Origin: an uncultured Candidatus Saccharibacteria bacterium
GTDB lineage: Bacteria; Patescibacteriota; Minisyncoccia; UBA6257; GWB1-50-10
Reading direction: 5' to 3'
DNA length: 58,743 bases
NCBI GenBank assembly: GCA_964565515.1
Contig: CAZMFA010000002.1
Span: 1-58,743 of the forward strand
Both the position numbers and the translations under genes were made by a program. The notes under the pieces were generated by a model that saw only the letters and a program-made list of their open reading frames with translations, did not search any database and was not told the origin of the DNA. Shown piece by piece: positions 6,368 through 53,691 of the stretch; position 1 is the first letter of the stretch, and every line of letters begins with the position of its first letter.

Positions 6368-6445
6368 CCCCGTTAGATTCCTCCTTGTTTGTCGCGGAAA
6401 TCTAAGACGACAGGAAGTCAGCTTTAAAAAGGGGATTTAACGGGG
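6368..6445 (+). repeat. palindrome-bounded element, short degenerate copy (E1)
   Basis: Arms CCCCGTTAGATTCC (6368-6381) and GGGGATTTAACGGGG (6431-6445) pair over 14 bp. Both non-Watson-Crick positions are G:U in the + strand RNA. Confidence 0.6.
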
Positions 6446-6458
6446 TAAAATAAAAGAA

Positions 6459-7115
6459 ATGGCCCAAACAAGCCTCCCAACGCAAAATTTAGTGGAGATC
6501 AAGAAGATCAAGGATGGCGTCGTCTATCTCAAGGACGGCGGCTTGGTGCAAATTATCATGGTGAACGGCATCAACTTCGACCTCAAGTCGGAAGAGGAAC
6601 AAAACGCCATCATCGGCACCTTCCAAAAATTCCTCAATTCTCTCGACTTCAGGACGCAATTCTTCATCCACTCCCGGAAGGTCAATATTCAAAAATACAT
6701 CGAGAACATCAGCGAGCGGAAAAAGAACGAAACAAACGAGCTTCTCAAGATACAGATTGATGAGTACTTGAGCTTTATAAAATCGTTCGTCGAAGAAAAT
6801 GCGATCATCAGCAAAAACTTCTTCATTGCCGTCCCGTATAATCCGACGCCTGAAACGGCTGCAACGACATCGGGACTTTTCAGTATGCTGAAGTTTGGGA
6901 AACGTGCGCCGACCCCTGCAGAAAACCAAGCGGCCGGCGTCAAGATTCAAGAGAACCTCGAGCAGTTGAAGAACCGGGTCGAGGGCATCATCGCCGGTCT
7001 CGAGCAGTTGGATCTTCGCGCAACGCCCCTGGAAGACGACGAACTCACCGAACTATTTTATAATCTCTACAATCCACAATTGACCGAGAAAAAGGATGTC
7101 AACATACCATCATGA
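6459..7115 (+). CDS. VirB4 N-terminal-domain-like protein (apparent 5' part of a split virB4)
   Basis: 218-aa ORF. The pattern VNGINFDLKSEEEQNAIIGTFQKFLNSLDFRTQFFI resembles the N-terminal domain of Gram-positive VirB4 homologues, recalled from memory and needing an HMM check. Its TGA stop lies inside the ATGAAT start of element E2. Confidence 0.45.
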   Translation: MAQTSLPTQNLVEIKKIKDGVVYLKDGGLVQIIMVNGINFDLKSEEEQNAIIGTFQKFLNSLDFRTQFFIHSRKVNIQKYIENISERKKNETNELLKIQIDEYLSFIKSFVEENAIISKNFFIAVPYNPTPETAATTSGLFSMLKFGKRAPTPAENQAAGVKIQENLEQLKNRVEGIIAGLEQLDLRATPLEDDELTELFYNLYNPQLTEKKDVNIPS

Positions 7116-7233
7116 ATCCTGTTAGAAATCGCGTACGCACATCGAAGGAAATACATGAATAAAAAATCAATCAAAGGGGTTAAAAACAATGTACGCAAAG
7201 CGCGGGGCGCGTATGCGTACTATTTCTAACGGG
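7112..7233 (+). repeat. palindrome-bounded element, family-2 copy (E2)
   Basis: Starts ATGAATCCTGTTAGAAATCGCGTACGC and ends GCGTACTATTTCTAACGGG. It is homologous end to end with 41951-42077 on the minus strand. It contains a 16-codon ORF (7112-7162, MNPVRNRVRTSKEIHE). ATG 7234 follows the 3' arm directly. Confidence 0.7.
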
Positions 7234-9003
7234 ATGAAGGTCCAAATACCAAAAGCATACAAGCCGGGGGAAGAAGATCTTTTCAACATCGTCGCCCCGT
7301 CGGGCGTGGAGGTAAACTCCAATTACTTGAAGGTTGGCGATTATTTCGCCAAAACCTTCTTCATTTTTACCTACCCGCGGTACATCTCGACGGGATGGTT
7401 TTCGCCGATCATCAACCTGCCGACCATGATGGATATTTCCATATTCGTTCACCCCATGGACACAGCCCTCGCCTTGAGGAACTTAAGAAAAAAGGTGACT
7501 CAAGTCGAAGCCGAAATAGGAGAAAAAGAAGAAAAGGGGATTGTACGCGACCCCGTCCTTGAAACCGCCTACCAAGATATCGAAAGCCTACGGGATGCGC
7601 TCCAGCAGGCCCGAGAACGGCTTTTCGAGGTCGGGGTTTACATCACCATTTACGCTTCGAGCCTCGAGGAACTTGCAAAAACGGAGGAAACCGTGACCAA
7701 TGCCATGGAAAGCCGGCTCGTGTACGTAAAGCCCGCCCTCTTCAGGCAATTAGACGGCTTCAATTCGGTCCTTCCCATCGCCAAGGACGTACTTGCCGTC
7801 CGAACCCCCCTGAACAGCGGACCGGCATCCTCGATCTTTCCCTTCACTTCCGCCGACCTTACCTCCGAAAACGGCATCCTTTACGGGATCAATATGCAGA
7901 ACAACACGCTCATCATTTTCGACCGTTTTTCGCTCGAGAACGCCAACATGGTCGTCTTCGCCAAATCGGGTTCCGGCAAATCATATGCCACAAAACTTCA
8001 AATACTCCGATCGCTTATGATGGGGACCGACGTCATCGTGATCGATCCGGAAAATGAATATCAAAACCTCGCCGATTCCATCGGGGGAAGTTATTTTAAA
8101 ATCTCGCTCACCTCAAAAAACCACGTCAATCCCTTCGACATCCCCGTCATCCCCGAGGGGGAGGAACCGGCCGACGTCTTTAAGTCGCACATCTTGAACC
8201 TCACCGGCCTCGTAAAACTGATGTTGGGAACCATAACGCCGGAAGAAGAAGCACTCCTCGACCGCGCGATCACCGAAACTTATACATCCCGTGATATCAC
8301 CGCGGAAAACTTCGGAACCTTGAAGGAAATGAATCCTCCGCTCCTCGAAGATCTCCAAACCATCCTTCGGAATACCGAAGGGGGAGCGGGAATCGCGGAG
8401 CGGTTGGATAAATACACCCACGGATCGTATTCCGGCTTCACCAATGCCCCAACCAACGTTGACATCAAAAATCGGCTCATTGTCTTTTCAATCCGCGACC
8501 TCGAGGAAGAGCTCCGGCCGATCGCCATGTACATCGTTTTGAACTTCGTTTGGAATCTCGTGCGCTCAGAACTCAAGCAGCGGCTTCTCGTGATCGACGA
8601 GGCGTGGTGGATGATGAAATACAAGGATAGCGCTTCGTTCTTGTTCGGCCTTGTGAAGCGTGCTCGGAAATACTACCTCGGCGTTACGACCATCACCCAA
8701 GACGTGGACGACTTTCTCCGCTCCGAATACGGCCGACCGATCGTCACGAACTCCGCCATGCAACTTCTCCTTAAACAATCGCCGTCAAGCATCGATTCAT
8801 TGAAAAAAGCGTTCAACTTGACTGATGGAGAATCGGCATTGCTCCTCGAGTCGGCCGTCGGCGAAGGGCTGCTCTTTGCCGGTTTGAAACATGCTGCAAT
8901 CCGCATCATCGCGTCGTATACCGAGGATCAAATCGTCACGACAAATCCCGAACAAATCCTCGAAACAAAGGGCATTAAAGAAGAAAACAATGGATCCCAT
9001 TAG
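7234..9003 (+). CDS. virB4: VirB4-family type IV secretion ATPase (C-terminal ~590 aa)
   Basis: Walker A FAKSGSGKSYATK, Walker B RLLVIDEAWWMM, and the motif YPRYISTGWFSPII typical of VirB4/TraC-like proteins. ATG 7234 is preferred over 7189 because the 15 upstream codons are element-encoded. Confidence 0.8.
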   Translation: MKVQIPKAYKPGEEDLFNIVAPSGVEVNSNYLKVGDYFAKTFFIFTYPRYISTGWFSPIINLPTMMDISIFVHPMDTALALRNLRKKVTQVEAEIGEKEEKGIVRDPVLETAYQDIESLRDALQQARERLFEVGVYITIYASSLEELAKTEETVTNAMESRLVYVKPALFRQLDGFNSVLPIAKDVLAVRTPLNSGPASSIFPFTSADLTSENGILYGINMQNNTLIIFDRFSLENANMVVFAKSGSGKSYATKLQILRSLMMGTDVIVIDPENEYQNLADSIGGSYFKISLTSKNHVNPFDIPVIPEGEEPADVFKSHILNLTGLVKLMLGTITPEEEALLDRAITETYTSRDITAENFGTLKEMNPPLLEDLQTILRNTEGGAGIAERLDKYTHGSYSGFTNAPTNVDIKNRLIVFSIRDLEEELRPIAMYIVLNFVWNLVRSELKQRLLVIDEAWWMMKYKDSASFLFGLVKRARKYYLGVTTITQDVDDFLRSEYGRPIVTNSAMQLLLKQSPSSIDSLKKAFNLTDGESALLLESAVGEGLLFAGLKHAAIRIIASYTEDQIVTTNPEQILETKGIKEENNGSH

Positions 9004-9101
9004 AAACCACAAACTTATAAAAAACACAATCGCTCGCAAAGTCGAATTAACCAAGTTTCATAGGCAATCGCTTATGAAAAAGGTATTTTGTTTCTAAAGG
9101 G
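8990..9101 (+). repeat. palindrome-bounded element, family-1 copy A, with 35-codon mini-ORF 8990-9097
   Basis: Arms CCCATTAGAAAC (8996-9007) and GTTTCTAAAGGG (9090-9101). Mini-ORF: MDPIRNHKLIKNTIARKVELTKFHRQSLMKKVFCF. The virB4 stop TAG (9001-9003) lies inside the 5' arm, and ATG 9102 abuts the 3' arm. Confidence 0.7.
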
Positions 9102-9560
9102 ATGGATGAAGATTTAAAGCCATTAAAGGAGTTCGACGCGAAGGGGCTTGACGAAACCGCAAAGAACATCGCGGGCGACGCCCCGAAGATCGGCTGGGGA
9201 GAGATCTTCCTCATAACGCCGCTTCTCTTGTTTGTTGATTTTGTGGAACTCATGGCCGGGCTCCTTGAATTCGTGCCGATTGCCGGACAAGCGATACTCC
9301 TTCCCCTTGCACTCATTTGTTCCGTAGTCGGACTCCTTATCACCGGCGGCGTCCAAGTTTATCTTTTTTTCAAACACATCAAAAACTATACCTTTCTTCT
9401 TGTCGGCATCGCCGATTCGGCCCCGTTCCTAAGCGACTTGCCGCTTCGGACCGCGGGCTGGCTCGTGACTGTTTTCATGACCAATAATAAGAAGGTTTCT
9501 CAAATAACCTCCCGAATTCCGGGCGGGAAGATCGCCAAAGCTCTAAGTGAATTGCCATGA
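9102..9560 (+). CDS. small integral membrane protein
   Basis: 152-aa ORF with about 3 hydrophobic helices; 4-nt overlap with the next ORF. Confidence 0.5.
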   Translation: MDEDLKPLKEFDAKGLDETAKNIAGDAPKIGWGEIFLITPLLLFVDFVELMAGLLEFVPIAGQAILLPLALICSVVGLLITGGVQVYLFFKHIKNYTFLLVGIADSAPFLSDLPLRTAGWLVTVFMTNNKKVSQITSRIPGGKIAKALSELP

Positions 9561-31168: not shown

Positions 31169-31280
31169 ATGAATCCCATGAGAAACCGTAAACTTATAAA
31201 AAAGATGATTATTCAAGAAGTCAAATTAACCGCGCATTATAGGCAGCTGCTTATAAAAAAGGCGCCTCGTTTCTAATGGG
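31169..31280 (+). repeat. palindrome-bounded element, family-1 copy B, with 35-codon mini-ORF 31169-31276
   Basis: Arms CCCATGAGAAAC (31175-31186) and GTTTCTAATGGG (31269-31280). Mini-ORF: MNPMRNRKLIKKMIIQEVKLTAHYRQLLIKKAPRF. ATG 31281 abuts the 3' arm. Confidence 0.7.
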
Positions 31281-32636
31281 ATGAAACTTACTTTTTGCGG
31301 TGGAGCCAAAATCGTCACGGGTTCCAACTATCTTTTGGAATCGGGCGACACGAAGATTCTCATCGATTGCGGATTGAATCAAGGCGAAAGTTTTTGCGAG
31401 AATTTGAATTACGAGCCGTTTCCTTACGACCCCCGGGAAGTGCAAGCGGTCTTCGTGACGCATGCCCACATCGATCACATCGGCCGCCTTCCCAAGCTCG
31501 TGAAGGACGGTTTCCGCGGCGCGATCCATTCGACGGGGCCTACCAAGGATTTCGCCGCTCCAATGCTTGAGGATACGGCACATTTATTCGGCGAAGAAGT
31601 GATGAAAAAGGGCCGCGAGCCGCTTTATGGCGATGGTGATATTGAGCGAACACTCGCCCTGTGGCAAAGTTTCGCTTATCACGAGACGGTCGAAGTCGGA
31701 CCGTTTTCGGTGGAATTTTTCAACGCAGGTCATATCCTGGGATCGTCAACGCTCGTCGTGTCCGTCGAAGGGGGAAAAATCGTCTTTTCCGGCGACCTCG
31801 GGAATAGTCCATCACCCCTCATTACGGGGACGGAATATCCGACGGACGTCGATTATGCGCTCGTGGAGTCCGCTTACGGCGACCGGATCCACGAGGATTT
31901 GGACAAGCGGAAGGAAATGCTGAAGGAAAATGTCCAAGAGGCCGTTCGCGCGGGAGGTGTCCTTATGATCCCGGCTTTTGCTCTCGAACGGACCCAAGAA
32001 ATGCTCTTCGAGTTGAATAATATGGTTGAGGGGAAGGAAATTCCCGCCGTGCCGGTTTTTGTCGACAGTCCTCTCGCAATCAAGCTTACGGATGTCTATC
32101 GGAAATATTCCCGCAACCCCCTGTATTTCAACAAGGGCACCGTCGATTTGGTGCGGTCCGGCGAAGATATTTTCAATTTCCCCGGCCTTACGATGACGCT
32201 TACGAAAGAAGAGTCAAAAAAGATCAATGATGTCCCGCCGCCCAAGATTGTTATTGCCGGCGCCGGGATGTCGAACGGCGGAAGGATCTTGCATCACGAG
32301 GTTCGTTATCTCTCCGATCCGCGGAGTACGCTTCTTGTTGTCGGCTACCAATCGGTCAATTCGCTGGGGCGGAAGCTTTTGGACGGAGAACGCCGGGTCG
32401 AGATCCTCGGCCAAGTCGTCGAAGTGAAGGCGAAAATCCTTTCAATCAGCGGCTATTCGGCCCACGCCGACCAAAATCAGCTGCTTGATTGGGTTTCTCG
32501 CTTGGGGAAGGGCGTGAAGAAGATCTTCGTGGTCCAGGGCGACGGCAACGCTTCCGATATTCTTGCGGAAAAGATCAGAGAAAGATTCTCCCTTGAGGCC
32601 CTCGCTCCTTCACGGAGGGATTCGGTACTGTTATAA
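31281..32636 (+). CDS. metallo-beta-lactamase / beta-CASP family RNA-metabolising hydrolase
   Basis: HAHIDHIGRLP motif; 451 aa; C-terminal SGYSAHAD, typical of beta-CASP proteins. Confidence 0.75.
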   Translation: MKLTFCGGAKIVTGSNYLLESGDTKILIDCGLNQGESFCENLNYEPFPYDPREVQAVFVTHAHIDHIGRLPKLVKDGFRGAIHSTGPTKDFAAPMLEDTAHLFGEEVMKKGREPLYGDGDIERTLALWQSFAYHETVEVGPFSVEFFNAGHILGSSTLVVSVEGGKIVFSGDLGNSPSPLITGTEYPTDVDYALVESAYGDRIHEDLDKRKEMLKENVQEAVRAGGVLMIPAFALERTQEMLFELNNMVEGKEIPAVPVFVDSPLAIKLTDVYRKYSRNPLYFNKGTVDLVRSGEDIFNFPGLTMTLTKEESKKINDVPPPKIVIAGAGMSNGGRILHHEVRYLSDPRSTLLVVGYQSVNSLGRKLLDGERRVEILGQVVEVKAKILSISGYSAHADQNQLLDWVSRLGKGVKKIFVVQGDGNASDILAEKIRERFSLEALAPSRRDSVLL

Positions 32637-41780: not shown

Positions 41781-41950
41781 CAGTTATTGATAAGTTTTTG
41801 TATGTCGACGTTTCCTAATGTTCGGGCGTTCTTTTTCCGTTTGATTTGCACCGTTCTTTTGTTCGCTCGCGAGTGACCCAAAGCCATTGCCCGGCGGAGC
41901 ACCTTGCCTGACTTCGTTATTTTTATTCTTTTTGACACGCTTTTCCTCAT
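41780..41950 (-). CDS. rpmI: 50S ribosomal protein L35
   Basis: MRKSVSKRIKITKSGKVLRR. The start at 41950 abuts the element arm; the track's 7-codon extension is element-encoded. Confidence 0.85.
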   Translation of the reverse strand: MRKSVSKRIKITKSGKVLRRAMALGHSRANKRTVQIKRKKNARTLGNVDIQKLINN

Positions 41951-42077
41951 TCCGTTAGAAATAGTACGCACACACGGAGTGCGTTTTGCGCCTATTGTTT
42001 TTAACCTTTTTCATTGATTGTTTTTTCATAAGTTTATTTTCTTTTCATGGGCGTATGCGATTTCTAACGGGATTCAT
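41951..42077 (-). repeat. palindrome-bounded element, family-2 copy (E6)
   Basis: Minus strand reads ATGAATCCCGTTAGAAATCGCATACGC ... GCGTACTATTTCTAACGGA. It is homologous to 7112-7233. It contains a 10-codon ORF, MNPVRNRIRP (42077-42045). Confidence 0.7.
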
Positions 42078-42079
42078 TG

Positions 42080-50699: not shown

Positions 50700-52412
50700 T
50701 TATATCTCGATAATGACCGGAAGGACCATCGGCCTTCGTTTTGTCTTGCTGTACAAGAATTGGCCGACTTGGTCCCGAATGAGCGCCTTCAGGTAGTCTG
50801 TGTCCACTTCCTCGCGGCGGGGGATTCTGCCGAAGATGCCGCGCACCTTCCGCCGAATTTCATCCAAAAGCTCTTGGTTTTCGCGGAGGTAAATGAAGCC
50901 GCGCGAAATGATGTCCGGATTTTTCACGACCCGCCCGGTCTTCCGGTCCAAGGTCGTAATGACGACGAACATGCCCTCTTCTGCGAGCAAGAGTCGGTCG
51001 CGGAGGACCACTTCGCCGATATCGCCGACGCCGAGGCCGTCGACCAGAATATAGTTCGCCGGCACGGTTTCTCCCGTTATGACAAACTCGTCTTTCGTGA
51101 GGTTCGCCACTTGACCGTTGTCCATGAGTCGGACGTTTTCCGGCCGCACGCCGGCGCGGACGGCGTTTTGGCCGTTGGCAAATCGCATGAAGTAGTAGCC
51201 GTGGACCGGCATAACGAACTTCGGCCGCAAGGCCCGCATCGCGAGGTCGATATCGTCTTTCATGGCATGTCCGCTTACGTGGATGTCGATGATGGACGAA
51301 GTGTAAACGACCGCGCCTTGCCGCGCCAAATTATCTTTGAGGTTTTGAACGCCGCGCTCGTTCCCCGGAATAACCGAGGAAGAAAAGATGACGGTGTCGC
51401 CGGCTTTAAGCTTGATGTACTTGTGGATCCCAGTCACGATCTTCATGAGGCCGGCGGAAGATTCTCCTTGGGCGCCGGTCGAAAGGATGAGGATCTCGTT
51501 ATCCTTGTACTTGTGGATGTCCTCGACGGCGATCAAGGTATCCTTGTTTTTGGTCTTGATGTAGCCGAGATTTTTCGCGATGAGGACGTTGTCCCGCATC
51601 GATCGGCCGTTGACGGCAACTTTCTTGCCGAGGCGTTCGGCAATCTTCACGATCTCCGCGATCCTCGTCAACATCGAAGAAAAGGTGGCGAGAATAATCC
51701 TGCCTTTCGCTTGCTTGATGAGCATCTCGATGTTCTTTTCGATCACTTTTTCCGAAAGTGAGTGTCCTTCTTCTTCGGCATTTGTGCTGTCCACCATGAA
51801 GGTGTGGACGCCCATATCGCCGATGCGCTTAAAAGTGTCGAGGCCTTGCGGTTCATCCTTCTCGTTGTATTCGATGCGGAAGTCGGCGAAGTGAACAATG
51901 TTCCCGGCCGGCGTTTTCACGACGACGCCGATGGTTTCGGGGATCGTGTGGTCGACGCCGAAGAACTCGAGTTCGATATTCTCGCTGATCTTAAAGCGGT
52001 CGCCGTATCGCACTTCTTGCACCCGGAGGCGCGGTGCATTCGTGAATTCGTTTTGCCGCTTTTCGATGATGGCGCGGGACATCCTCGTGGTGTAGACCGG
52101 CGGATTGCCGAGCTTGCCCATAAGGTAGGGCATGGCACCGATATGATCGTAGTGGGCATGTGTGATCACGACCGCTTTGATCTTTTCTTTCTTTTCCTCG
52201 AGGCACGAGATGTTCGGGATGATGAAATCAACGCCCGGTGTCGTTTCCTCGGGAAACTGGAGGCCCATGTCGATCACAATGATGTCGTTCTTGTATTCGA
52301 TGAACGACATGTTGCGGCCGATTTCTTCAAGTCCGCCGAGGGCCGCAAGGCGGACATGGTCGCCGGACATTTTTTCCGGCAGTTTGGTTGTTTTTACTCC
52401 TCTTGGAGTCAT
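50700..52412 (-). CDS. rnj: ribonuclease J
   Basis: 570 aa; HAHYDHIGA metallo-beta-lactamase motif, beta-CASP region and C-terminal domain; typical length. Confidence 0.85.
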   Translation of the reverse strand: MTPRGVKTTKLPEKMSGDHVRLAALGGLEEIGRNMSFIEYKNDIIVIDMGLQFPEETTPGVDFIIPNISCLEEKKEKIKAVVITHAHYDHIGAMPYLMGKLGNPPVYTTRMSRAIIEKRQNEFTNAPRLRVQEVRYGDRFKISENIELEFFGVDHTIPETIGVVVKTPAGNIVHFADFRIEYNEKDEPQGLDTFKRIGDMGVHTFMVDSTNAEEEGHSLSEKVIEKNIEMLIKQAKGRIILATFSSMLTRIAEIVKIAERLGKKVAVNGRSMRDNVLIAKNLGYIKTKNKDTLIAVEDIHKYKDNEILILSTGAQGESSAGLMKIVTGIHKYIKLKAGDTVIFSSSVIPGNERGVQNLKDNLARQGAVVYTSSIIDIHVSGHAMKDDIDLAMRALRPKFVMPVHGYYFMRFANGQNAVRAGVRPENVRLMDNGQVANLTKDEFVITGETVPANYILVDGLGVGDIGEVVLRDRLLLAEEGMFVVITTLDRKTGRVVKNPDIISRGFIYLRENQELLDEIRRKVRGIFGRIPRREEVDTDYLKALIRDQVGQFLYSKTKRRPMVLPVIIEI

Positions 52413-52525
52413 AATGTTTTGTTTTTTTCTAACGACTTTTATTGAGTACTTGCTAAGCCGCGAGCGGTGAAGGGACCCGCCGGGTGTTTAGCTCTGAAAA
52501 TTATTCGACTTTTTAATTTTCATTG

Positions 52526-52577
52526 TGGGTAGAGAGGGACTTGAACCCTCACGGGATTGCTCCCACAGGCTCCCTTG
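52526..52577 (-). pseudogene. 3' half of a tRNA-Leu(CAA), truncated in the anticodon loop
   Basis: Minus strand reads CAAGG-GAGCC-T-GTGGGAGCAATCCCGT-GAGGG-TTCAAGT-CCCTC-TCTACCC-A. That is an anticodon, 3' anticodon stem, long variable arm, T-arm and acceptor 3' strand. No matching 5' half (GGGTAGA...) is nearby. Confidence 0.5.
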
Positions 52578-52690
52578 CCCCGTTAGAAATGTGCTGGAGG
52601 AGGGACTTGAACCCTCACGTCCTTGCGGACACTAGCTCCTGAAGCTAGCCTGTCTGCCAATTTCAGCACTCCAGCATATTTCTAACGGGG
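52578..52690 (-). repeat. palindrome arms enclosing tRNA-Leu(CAG) (E7)
   Basis: CCCCGTTAGAAAT (52578-52590) and ATTTCTAACGGGG (52678-52690) are perfect 13-nt complements that extend the tRNA acceptor stem. Confidence 0.7.
52592..52675 (-). tRNA. tRNA-Leu(CAG)
   Basis: 84-nt class II tRNA: acceptor GCTGGAG/CTCCAGC, anticodon arm CTAGC-TTCAGGA-GCTAG, variable arm GTCCGCAAGGAC, T-arm GAGGG-TTCAAGT-CCCTC. Confidence 0.85.
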
Positions 52691-52713
52691 TGAACCTGCG
52701 TTCTCCCCGGATG

Positions 52714-53691
52714 CTATTGAAAACGTTCCTTCAGCTCATCGATGATTTTTGTTTCTTCCGGTGCGACGCCGTTTTGTTTAGCGAGGCCGAGCGCGGTCCA
52801 CCAAGCGAACGCGACGCCGTTCCAGAATTTCTCTTCTTCATTTTTCCCTGTGAGGGGGATCATTGCGCTTTTAATGCCGCGCTGTTCGAGTTTTTGCGCG
52901 ACGAATTTCACTTTATTCTTAACCTTCCGTTCGAGGGCGGGGTCTATGAGCCAAAGGACGAACCAAGGTCCTTTGATGTTTTGAAAACCGACAATTTCGT
53001 TGTGATTGATTTCCGGGTACGTATTCCAAAATGCGGCGTTCTTTCCCGTTTCATTGAAGCTGATCTTCCAAATATAGCTAAGAGCCGCATGCGCTTCATC
53101 GGAATAAACTAAAATATTTTTCCCCTTGAGCTTTCCGGCCAACGAGGTGCCGCGTGCGGAAAACCGTGCCGCTTTGATCGTTCGGGAGAGGTCCCGAACG
53201 GCGACTGCGGGGAAGATCGCTTGGAGTACGCTTGCTATTCCGTAGTACATCATGCCAGATGCTTCGCGTGGTGTCAAGTCCCCGGGGTCGAAGGAGGCCG
53301 CGGGGATCTTTTTTTGTTCGGCGATCCTCCTCATGATTCCGCCCTTGCCCGTTACAATCGCAATGCCGGATTTCTTCTTCGTTTTCAGGGCTTCGCTAAG
53401 GCAATGGATGGTTTCTTCGGTGTTGCCCGAAAAAGAGATGCAGAGGTAAAACGGACGTCTGAAGGGAAGGGGAAGCAATCCGCCGTTCTTTAAGGTTACG
53501 ACGGGGACGGGAATGCCGAGGGGCGCCGCATGTTCCCGGATGATGTCGCCTACGAGACCCGAGCCGCCCATGCCGCAGACGACGACGGCGTCCGGCTTTG
53601 GTGTTTTGAGTTTTTCGAAGTTCGCCGTCTTGATGTTCTGGACCGAAAGCTGATCCTCGAAGCGGCGGAGATTTTTTTCGAATGAAGTCAT
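52714..53691 (-). CDS. SIS-domain phosphoglucose/phosphomannose isomerase-like
   Basis: 325 aa; CGMGGSGLVGD and a second SIS-like half. Confidence 0.65.
   Translation of the reverse strand: MTSFEKNLRRFEDQLSVQNIKTANFEKLKTPKPDAVVVCGMGGSGLVGDIIREHAAPLGIPVPVVTLKNGGLLPLPFRRPFYLCISFSGNTEETIHCLSEALKTKKKSGIAIVTGKGGIMRRIAEQKKIPAASFDPGDLTPREASGMMYYGIASVLQAIFPAVAVRDLSRTIKAARFSARGTSLAGKLKGKNILVYSDEAHAALSYIWKISFNETGKNAAFWNTYPEINHNEIVGFQNIKGPWFVLWLIDPALERKVKNKVKFVAQKLEQRGIKSAMIPLTGKNEEEKFWNGVAFAWWTALGLAKQNGVAPEETKIIDELKERFQ

Follow-up and report, generated by a model that had tools for sequence, protein, structure and literature searches.

How does a complete tRNA gene come to lie between two inverted repeats, with the 3′ half of what seems to be a second tRNA directly behind it? 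The question is raised by the minus strand between a PGI-like gene and rnj in the stretch of DNA analysed here (hereafter the window: 58,743 nt, positions 1–58,743 of contig CAZMFA010000002.1, assembly GCA_964565515.1, from an uncultured Candidatus Saccharibacteria bacterium). Comparison with sister genomes and with similar loci elsewhere pointed, with a probability of roughly 0.8, to a replacement cassette, i.e., a small mobile arm–tRNA–arm element with a foreign tRNA-Leu(CAG) inserted into the resident tRNA-Leu(CAG) gene at its anticodon loop. The locus is laid out from 5′ to 3′ as follows:

52716–52714, minus strand: TAG stop codon of the PGI-like gene, the upstream end of the locus
52708–52695, minus strand: decayed 5′ remnant of the resident tRNA-Leu(CAG), GGGGAGAACGCAGG, aligned with the intact orthologue GGGCAGGTGGCGGAACCGGCAGACGCGCAGGC in the sister genomes L001 and L002
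52694–52691, minus strand: junction tetranucleotide TTCA, found before the arm in 17 cassettes with CAAG at their other end
52690–52678, minus strand: 5′ arm, terminal inverted repeat CCCCGTTAGAAAT, also found in siblings within the window and in copies bearing a GIY-YIG nuclease gene
52677–52676, minus strand: AT spacer
52675–52592, minus strand: cargo, a complete 84-nt tRNA-Leu(CAG) (ARAGORN; Rfam RF00005)
52591, minus strand: C spacer
52590–52578, minus strand: 3′ arm, ATTTCTAACGGGG (arm search and inverted-repeat comparison)
52577–52574, minus strand: junction tetranucleotide CAAG, the source of a misread "CAA"
52573–52526, minus strand: 3′ remnant of the resident tRNA-Leu(CAG), positions 36–73, 48 nt, one of which differs from L001 and L002
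52436–52426, minus strand: solitary word GTCGTTAGAAA in the rnj leader, outside the cassette; GTCGTTAGAAAAATAAAAA in the cassette-free L001–L004
52412, minus strand: rnj start codon, the downstream end of the locus

The insert measured 113 nt, with its 13-nt terminal inverted repeats around the tRNA and 23 nt between the upstream stop codon and the 5′ arm. The cargo scored 52.1 bits against RF00005 (E = 1.6e-10; gathering score 29) and showed an acceptor stem GCTGGAG/CTCCAGC, discriminator A73, and a long variable arm; CCA was not encoded. A complete tRNA-Leu(CAG) between inverted arms, as proposed in the initial annotation of the locus, was thereby confirmed. Its proposal that the arms lengthen the acceptor stem into a long duplex also held, since arms and acceptor stem together formed a 22-nt inverted repeat that was 95% complementary, with one mismatch. 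The fold of the cargo tRNA on the 13-bp arm helix, set within an outer shell lacking a D arm, was predicted at −94 kcal/mol (z = −6.7). Of the outer shell, the 5′ remnant kept the 5′ strands of the acceptor and anticodon stems, with the D arm (~15 nt) deleted and C31 gone. The 3′ remnant reads GGA-GCCTG-TGGGAGCAATCCCGT-GAGGG-TTCAAGT-CCCTC-TCTACCC-A, in which GGA leads into the 3′ side of the anticodon stem, followed by the variable and T arms and by TCTACCC, the 3′ strand of the acceptor stem, with its A; searched alone, it gave no tRNA match with Rfam.

The uninterrupted state of the locus was found in close relatives. RNase J homologues at 95, 89, and 82% identity belonged to Patescibacteria metagenome-assembled genomes (MAGs), on whose contigs the gene order was kept; a look-up of the exact RNase J sequence of the window gave no record. 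In L001 and L002 (95%), a single intact tRNA-Leu(CAG), GGGCAGGTGGCGGAACCGGCAGACGCGCAGGCTTCAGGAGCCTGTGGGAGCAATCCCGTGAGGGTTCAAGTCCCTCTCTGCCCA, followed by CAATGAAAATTAAAAA, lies between the PGI-like gene and rnj. The 48-nt piece in the window corresponds to positions 36–73 of this gene with one substitution, the downstream spacer CAATGAAAATTAAAAA is also the same, and the 14-nt segment ahead of TTCA can be aligned with the acceptor and anticodon stems of this gene, on their 5′ sides. Metagenome contigs of relatives matched the window up to 52573 and then ran on as an uninterrupted loop, TGAAGCCTGCGCGTCTGCC (loose ends). Because of the 48-nt match and these uninterrupted-loop contigs, the "second tRNA" was assigned to the resident tRNA-Leu(CAG) and not to a tRNA-Leu(CAA). 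Judged from these alignments, the resident gene survives as a pseudogene in two pieces, a nearly intact 3′ piece and a 5′ piece without a D arm, and the insert sits in the anticodon loop after position 35. Contigs with the uninterrupted tRNA-Leu(CAG) allele (loose ends at 52573; runs X2, X3, and X4) came from mine-drainage samples in which the cassette allele was also present, so that filled and empty sites coexist in the community. The cassette was absent from all ten syntenic relatives fetched.

Several details of the initial annotation could be reinterpreted in this light. Its second tRNA after the arm is real as a 3′ portion reaching to 52526, but the identity given to it was wrong. The CAA read as an anticodon is part of CAAG, a junction word of the element in the cassettes of other genomes: CAAG followed the arm in at least 17 cassettes, involving Ala, Leu, Val, Pro, and Gly tRNAs, and it cannot be an anticodon because it follows the arm beside the Ala, Val, Pro, and Gly cassettes too. 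TTCA, on the other side, may represent either loop positions 32–35 of the resident or a left "handle" of the element itself; in the cassette comparison, TTCA before the arm also occurred with tRNAs whose loop has no TTCA. The annotation had correctly reported that the window holds no GGGTAGA 5′ half, as the sole GGGTAGA is the reverse complement of the remnant and was rejected as a candidate, but it had overlooked the decayed 5′ remnant with its TTCA at 52708–52691. The solitary half-site before rnj likewise exists, but the suggested tie to the cassette did not survive: it is conserved in cassette-free relatives and therefore unrelated to the insertion.

By its identities, the cargo is foreign to this lineage. 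It was 66% identical to the resident tRNA of L001 and L002, and 81% identical to the cassette cargo of a Jorgensenbacteria MAG (L024), with the acceptor stem GCTGGAG common to both. The same value of 81% was obtained with the resident tRNA of L006, an 82% RNase J relative. This relative co-occurs with the genome in the same sample, and its resident tRNA matched the middle part of the cargo at approximately 90% identity. The cargo looks mosaic, an impression to be taken with caution for only 84 nt. An identical 20-nt stretch, CGTGAGGGTTCAAGTCCCTC, which covers the last part of the variable arm and the T arm, was present in the remnant (52533–52552) and in the cargo (52599–52618); in tRNAs that are otherwise 66% alike, it may have resulted from gene conversion between the nested copies.

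Other states of the same locus were found in further relatives:

L003 and L004 (L003:9651–10012): tRNA-Leu(CAG) as in L001 and L002, with a different 134-nt inverted-repeat element, arms CCCCCACACCTAAGCGAAAG, in the acceptor 5′ strand
L005, the 89% relative (L005:9693–10012): 17 nt left over from the old 5′ half, gggcagatggcggaatc, followed by an unrelated, complete, armless tRNA-Leu(CAG)
L006 and L007: yet another tRNA-Leu(CAG) type

The gene of L003 and L004 remains intact because a CAGG duplication and the terminal GGG of the element restore the 5′ end of the tRNA; the same element is probably present in L008, judged from a 335-nt gap as in L003 and L004. L005 represents a second, independent replacement at this locus. 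Taken from these alignments, the tRNA-Leu(CAG) locus turns over quickly among close relatives.

The arms of the cassette recur elsewhere in the window. The arm word had eight matches at ≤2 mismatches (shuffle mean 2.1, with none of 100 shuffles reaching eight), and these pair up to bound units of 70–135 nt, giving a family of at least seven copies. The interiors of the units belong to unrelated families, comprising two kinds of mini-open reading frame (mini-ORF) and one GC-rich hairpin. The siblings of the cassette are:

41945–42078, minus strand: sibling at the rpmI start codon (filled/empty comparison)
7112–7240, plus strand: sibling with the same arms, sharing its interior family with 41945–42078 and ending at the ATG of the next gene
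23821–23940, minus strand: mini-ORF sibling with the same arms
8990–9108, plus strand: mini-ORF sibling with the same arms
31170–31290, plus strand: mini-ORF sibling with the same arms
25448–25522, plus strand: arm variant copy
6368–6445, plus strand: arm variant copy

Between infC and rpmI, the empty site, AAGAAATAA(C)A followed directly by ATGAAGAAAAGC, was uninterrupted in the loci of eight relatives (L001–L005 and L008–L010), whereas in the window two copies of (A)TGA(A/G) enclose a 120-nt unit. On the basis of this filled/empty comparison, the arm family is insertional. One reading in the initial annotation, that a recombinogenic element destroyed a tRNA gene, was thus essentially right, given the empty site in the sisters and the dispersed mobile family to which the arms belong; what it missed is that the enclosed tRNA, with the same anticodon, replaces the lost gene. 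The first five siblings listed each end directly at an ATG, two of which (those of rpmI and of a DNA polymerase I-like gene) were judged by eye to be gene starts, and all five start with ATGAATCC. The short ORFs of the siblings (MNPVRNRKL...RF; MNKKSIKGVKNN...AYYF) end within the 3′ arm at TTC TAA, leaving 5 nt to the ATG of the following gene, which looks like a translational hand-over to the host gene.

The same arms also bound protein-coding units. A metagenome scan for arms 222–252 nt apart gave at least 120 loci, and nine among the matches listed carry an ORF of 84–87 aa, MFYYTYV...KYLKSGMGKRYLKNRLKKFLTG, whose last codons TTT CTA ACG GGG (FLTG) are the arm itself and whose stop codon falls within the 4-nt flank. 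These arm-bounded ORFs are single-domain GIY-YIG proteins (PF01541, E = 1.8e-16 and 1.8e-17), with UPF0213 protein BH0048 and Slx1 as their nearest solved relatives. The arms mark a widespread insertional hairpin family whose coding members carry only this small nuclease. A profile of the arm-bounded proteins detected GIY-YIG genes that abut or overlap tRNA genes in several of the cassette loci, namely L074:4080–4442, L027:385–813 and 1189–1756, L067:5773–6359, and L122:4000–4455. Two of these tRNA-adjoining ORFs lie <150 nt from an arm-bounded tRNA cassette, and the copy in L074 has different arms, with a repeated tRNA 3′ end after it. In contigs of runs X1–X3, from samples holding the genome, the nuclease C-terminus is followed by ...CTCTAACGGGATGAA; nuclease-bearing copies are present in the community and were not placed in this genome. 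The arm variant CCCGTTAGAGAC/GTCTCTAGCGGGG at 25448–25522 resembles the ...CTCTAACGGGATGAA behind those GIY-YIG fragments.

Recurrence of the whole architecture was examined by scanning one genome per species for the pattern arm, 45–75 nt, T-loop word, 8–22 nt, arm, for which we estimated less than one match by chance. Exact arm cores and the T-loop word were required, and the scan therefore says nothing on the frequency of tRNA cargo among all elements or on cassettes with other arms. It returned 68 loci, mostly in Patescibacteria, 54 of which held a complete tRNA between the arms: Ala CGC (13), Leu CAG (8, or 9 with the window), Pro CGG (9), Pro TGG (7), Val TAC/CAC/GAC (8), Ser CGA (3), Thr CGT/TGT (5), and Gly CCC (1). 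In nearly all cases the flanks were the two halves of another tRNA gene. These flanks best matched a cargo for the same amino acid from another locus in 47 of 55 comparisons, against a mean of 10.8 and a maximum of 23 with shuffled labels, and most of the eight mismatches were still cognate by eye (class II Leu vs. Ser, or the only Gly of the set). The T stem was perfect in 54 of the 55 cargos, and the T-loop word was retained by the outer 3′ piece in 31 of 55. The scan's sample contained no cassette outside tRNA genes, and none was found in a viral contig collection.

The positions of the insertions followed regular patterns. Anticodons started with a pyrimidine and a purine (Y34R35) in 53 of 55 cases, so that loop positions 32–35 read TTYR or CTYR. 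Old loops that were still legible began with the anticodon bases of the cargo: TTTA with Val-TAC, TTCA...CAT with Val-CAC, TTCG with Ala-CGC, TTTG with Thr-TGT, and CTCG with Ser-CGA. The junctions of three Leu cassettes (L021, L024, and L028) were exactly those of the window (..GG TTCA, arm ... arm, CAAG GGA GCC..), with C31 also missing. A second lineage of Leu cassettes (acceptor GCCGCGG; L036, L038, L042, and L065) was always located between the D arm and the anticodon stem. At L042:3400–3630, a tRNA-Leu cassette (arms ..GTTAGAAAT) is nested in an older cassette's cargo (arms ..GTTACAAAT), and this older cassette is nested in a resident tRNA-Leu.

Among 253 elements with this arm in the fetched loci, identical 4-nt flanks were present in 113 (~45%), mostly TTTA, TTGA, and TTCA. 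The remaining members had unlike flanks, most often CTTG...TGAA, and the nuclease- and tRNA-bearing copies were of this kind. The words TTCA...CAAG and their reverse form CTTG...TGAA accounted for 23 of the 253. Models of the junction words with a 4-nt or 2-nt target duplication, with insertion 3′ of the target as in IS200/IS605, with carried-over staggered ends, or with recombination between copies were considered and set aside, as none fits all cases.

In the replacement that we propose, the cargo would be read from the transcription signals of the resident gene and would now supply tRNA-Leu(CAG). The cassette would be moved, now or formerly, in trans by a nuclease of the GIY-YIG type acting on the DNA hairpin formed by the arms, and its target would be a TTYR word at loop positions 32–35 of tRNAs whose anticodon starts with a pyrimidine and a purine. 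The cognate rule could be a matter of survivorship: TTYR loops would be struck regardless of identity, and solely a matching cargo would rescue the cell. Since that cargo would then be indispensable, only cargo-matching insertions would persist. In RNA, the arms would lengthen the acceptor stem to a helix of ~22 bp that must open or be cut before RNase P cleavage and 3′ trimming or CCA addition, and they may thus have a secondary effect on pre-tRNA processing.

The cognate rule could alternatively stem from targeted homing of the cassette into the cognate gene via break repair, which we regard as possible but doubtful. Insertion sites that are specific to a lineage, and junctions that are identical although the residents had already diverged (with different, internally compensated stems), lean toward such homing, as does the finding that the sampled cassettes were confined to tRNA genes. 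Equally tentative is the broader idea of a cut-and-rescue drive that serially overwrites the tRNA genes of the candidate phyla radiation (CPR)/Patescibacteria. Small GIY-YIG nucleases would cut anticodon loops, preferring TTYR at positions 32–35, and a hairpin-ended cassette with a spare copy of the same tRNA would enter the break by copying or ligation. The host would come to depend on the invader while the old gene decays, Russian-doll loci would reflect repeated rounds, and the cognate rule would stem from the mechanism, beyond the survival of harmless insertions. If true, this would constitute a natural "toxin-free" gene-replacement system and inform the origin of disrupted tRNA genes.

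Several observations weigh against a mobile replacement cassette. Unlike many non-coding siblings, this copy has no target-site duplication (TTCA vs. CAAG flanks), and neither the TTCA...CAAG words nor the absence of C31 in common with other cassettes is accounted for. The profile of arm-bounded GIY-YIG proteins gave no match in either the window or the 21-kb loci of the sister genomes, and the published SRM motif of Ssn nucleases (HGTCWY...RNCYNB) had no match in the window. Coverage of the locus was zero in three small metatranscriptomes of the same study. Identity among cargos clearly exceeded that among residents for Ala alone (83 vs. 72%), the other groups being level; for this reason, cargo alikeness was dropped as a general proof of horizontal spread, and the spread of cassettes as units, though shown at this locus, is unproven for the family as a whole.

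These points were weighed together with other explanations of the locus. Were the arms an RNA device, in which a leader–trailer helix is selected for processing (e.g., as an entry site for RNase III), their recurrence would reflect function and not mobility. The near-perfect 22-bp helix with the acceptor stem, the predicted fold (z = −6.7), and the base beside the arm core, which was paired in 69 of 69 elements (C-G 48, T-A 17, G-C 4), all agree with this; because that base always pairs and covaries, pairing in a single-stranded form is under selection. However, a DNA hairpin recognised by a nuclease would need pairing equally, the spacing between arm and tRNA end varies from 0 to 13 nt among cassettes, clean empty sites exist at two loci in sister genomes, and cargo of unrelated kinds is found between the same arms, one being a protein gene that is read through the arm (FLTG). 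We consider the RNA device improbable, and the shared processing stem that the initial annotation had suggested is unsupported as the primary meaning of arms that also bracket mini-ORFs, GC hairpins, and a nuclease gene; the siblings that end at an ATG, with insertion proven for the one between infC and rpmI, speak against it as well. Slightly less improbable, though still unlikely, is that the interrupted allele was imported ready-made from a co-occurring relative by homologous recombination, the cassette being no longer mobile. The filled and empty alleles and the 82% relative share samples, the middle of the cargo comes close to the resident tRNA of that relative, and L021, L024, and L028 have identical junctions. 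Such an import would cover only the last step, however, as an original insertion is still needed somewhere; in addition, none of the ten syntenic relatives has the cassette, and the outer 3′ piece (1/48 nt vs. the sisters) and downstream spacer are those of the lineage of the window itself.

Duplication or mis-assembly of a tandem tRNA-Leu pair is highly improbable. The identical 20-nt stretch in cargo and remnant could mislead an assembler or drive slippage, but unitigs from three metagenome runs holding the genome cover both the arm–remnant and the arm–tRNA junction with zero differences (one contig covers 52350–52677, for example, and another 52626–52800), which excludes an assembly artefact. 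The cargo is, moreover, just 66% identical to the resident type, and the same architecture occurs at 54 other loci. The most speculative reading of the initial annotation, in which the outer 3′ half belongs to a split tRNA and is joined through arm pairing to a 5′ half elsewhere, as in Nanoarchaeum, is refuted for this locus. The superficial layout, with an arm directly before the 3′ portion of a tRNA, is all that speaks for it. The host is a bacterium with a transfer-messenger RNA (ARAGORN), and the sister orthologue of the fragment is an ordinary, continuous tRNA-Leu(CAG) with the anticodon of the inner tRNA. The fragment's own decayed 5′ part, without a D arm, lies 113 nt upstream, the supposed anticodon is element sequence that recurs beside cassettes for other amino acids, and the outer halves of homologous cases are often badly decayed, as the count of remaining T-loop motifs indicates.

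A mobile cassette of this type would mean that selfish DNA can colonise an essential gene by bringing a whole spare copy of it instead of splicing out of the RNA. tRNA genes, normally among the most stable, would become fast-turnover and horizontally exchanged genes in these ultra-small bacteria, with a bearing on tRNA-based phylogeny and on codon-usage inference in CPR genomes. For annotation, the halves and junction words are easily mistaken for split tRNAs, extra isoacceptors, or new anticodons. Such a cassette would also give the many uncharacterised GIY-YIG proteins of ~85 aa a role and natural substrates.

A complete tRNA between arms inside a broken tRNA gene of the same anticodon, i.e., a cognate tRNA-replacement cassette, is what this locus contains, and the type is apparently unpublished: a full-text literature search found no description of a tRNA-in-dead-tRNA cassette. 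In its behaviour, the unit is comparable to a cargo-bearing miniature inverted-repeat transposable element (MITE) and to a homing cassette without an intron. Bacterial MITEs and hairpin repeats (Correia/NEMIS of Neisseria, RUP, ERIC) are short, non-autonomous, multicopy elements with terminal inverted repeats, often located at gene borders and co-transcribed with their neighbours. The cassette resembles them in its terminal inverted repeats shared by many dispersed copies and in the empty site in relatives. It differs in that its cargo is a complete, apparently functional tRNA with the anticodon of the interrupted gene, in that this copy lacks a target duplication, and in that coding relatives with the same arms encode a GIY-YIG nuclease of ~85 aa, with a putative role in movement, and not a DDE transposase. 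Phage T4 SegB is a free-standing GIY-YIG homing endonuclease in a tRNA gene cluster. Both cases tie a GIY-YIG nuclease to tRNA genes, with selfish DNA entering a conserved gene region without an intron, but the cassette lies inside a tRNA gene, rescues the host with a whole spare copy, and has no nuclease gene attached here. An integron attC site was also considered and rejected, as the arm core is only loosely like GTTRRRY, the copies are dispersed and not arrayed, and there is no integrase.

Ssn GIY-YIG nucleases act on single-stranded DNA and are associated with flanking NTS/SRM hairpins, the loop of which can be replaced without loss of cleavage; tRNA is not mentioned in that work (Chenal et al., 2025; PMC11893778). 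Both systems combine a very small single-domain GIY-YIG gene with flanking inverted-repeat DNA that is amplified in the genome, whereas the arms described here flank their cargo on both sides, with no compact hairpin on each side, and do not match the SRM pattern. Integrative elements that target tRNA genes are 9–23 kb long and integrase-driven, with the 3′ part of the gene as a direct repeat and a chimeric gene reconstituted (bioRxiv 10.1101/2022.07.05.498093). They too leave a tRNA fragment beside a functional copy and preserve function through imported sequence; the 113-nt unit, in contrast, brings a whole independent tRNA and leaves both old halves in place, and it contains no ORF and no direct repeat. 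Group I introns occupy the same gene region, the anticodon loop, in tRNA genes of the same host group (Williams, 2020; bioRxiv 10.1101/2020.01.27.920355). The cassette has no ribozyme or splicing, and its host gene is lost and replaced, not restored in RNA; an E-value search of 52380–52760 against Rfam gave no match to Intron_gpI, only the tRNA and chance-level matches. In archaeal split and permuted tRNA genes, tRNA halves lie beside complementary sequences (PMC3218864). The halves at this locus derive from one continuous bacterial gene, without a bulge-helix-bulge (BHB) motif or splicing endonuclease context and with a defective 5′ half, and they do not make up a full cloverleaf, as the 5′ piece has no D arm and no anticodon lies between TTCA and CAAG. 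Compared with all these systems, the elements new here are the before/after pair of sister genomes, the link by identical arms between a tRNA cassette and the FLTG-type GIY-YIG family, the pyrimidine–purine anticodon rule, and the explanation of the false "CAA".

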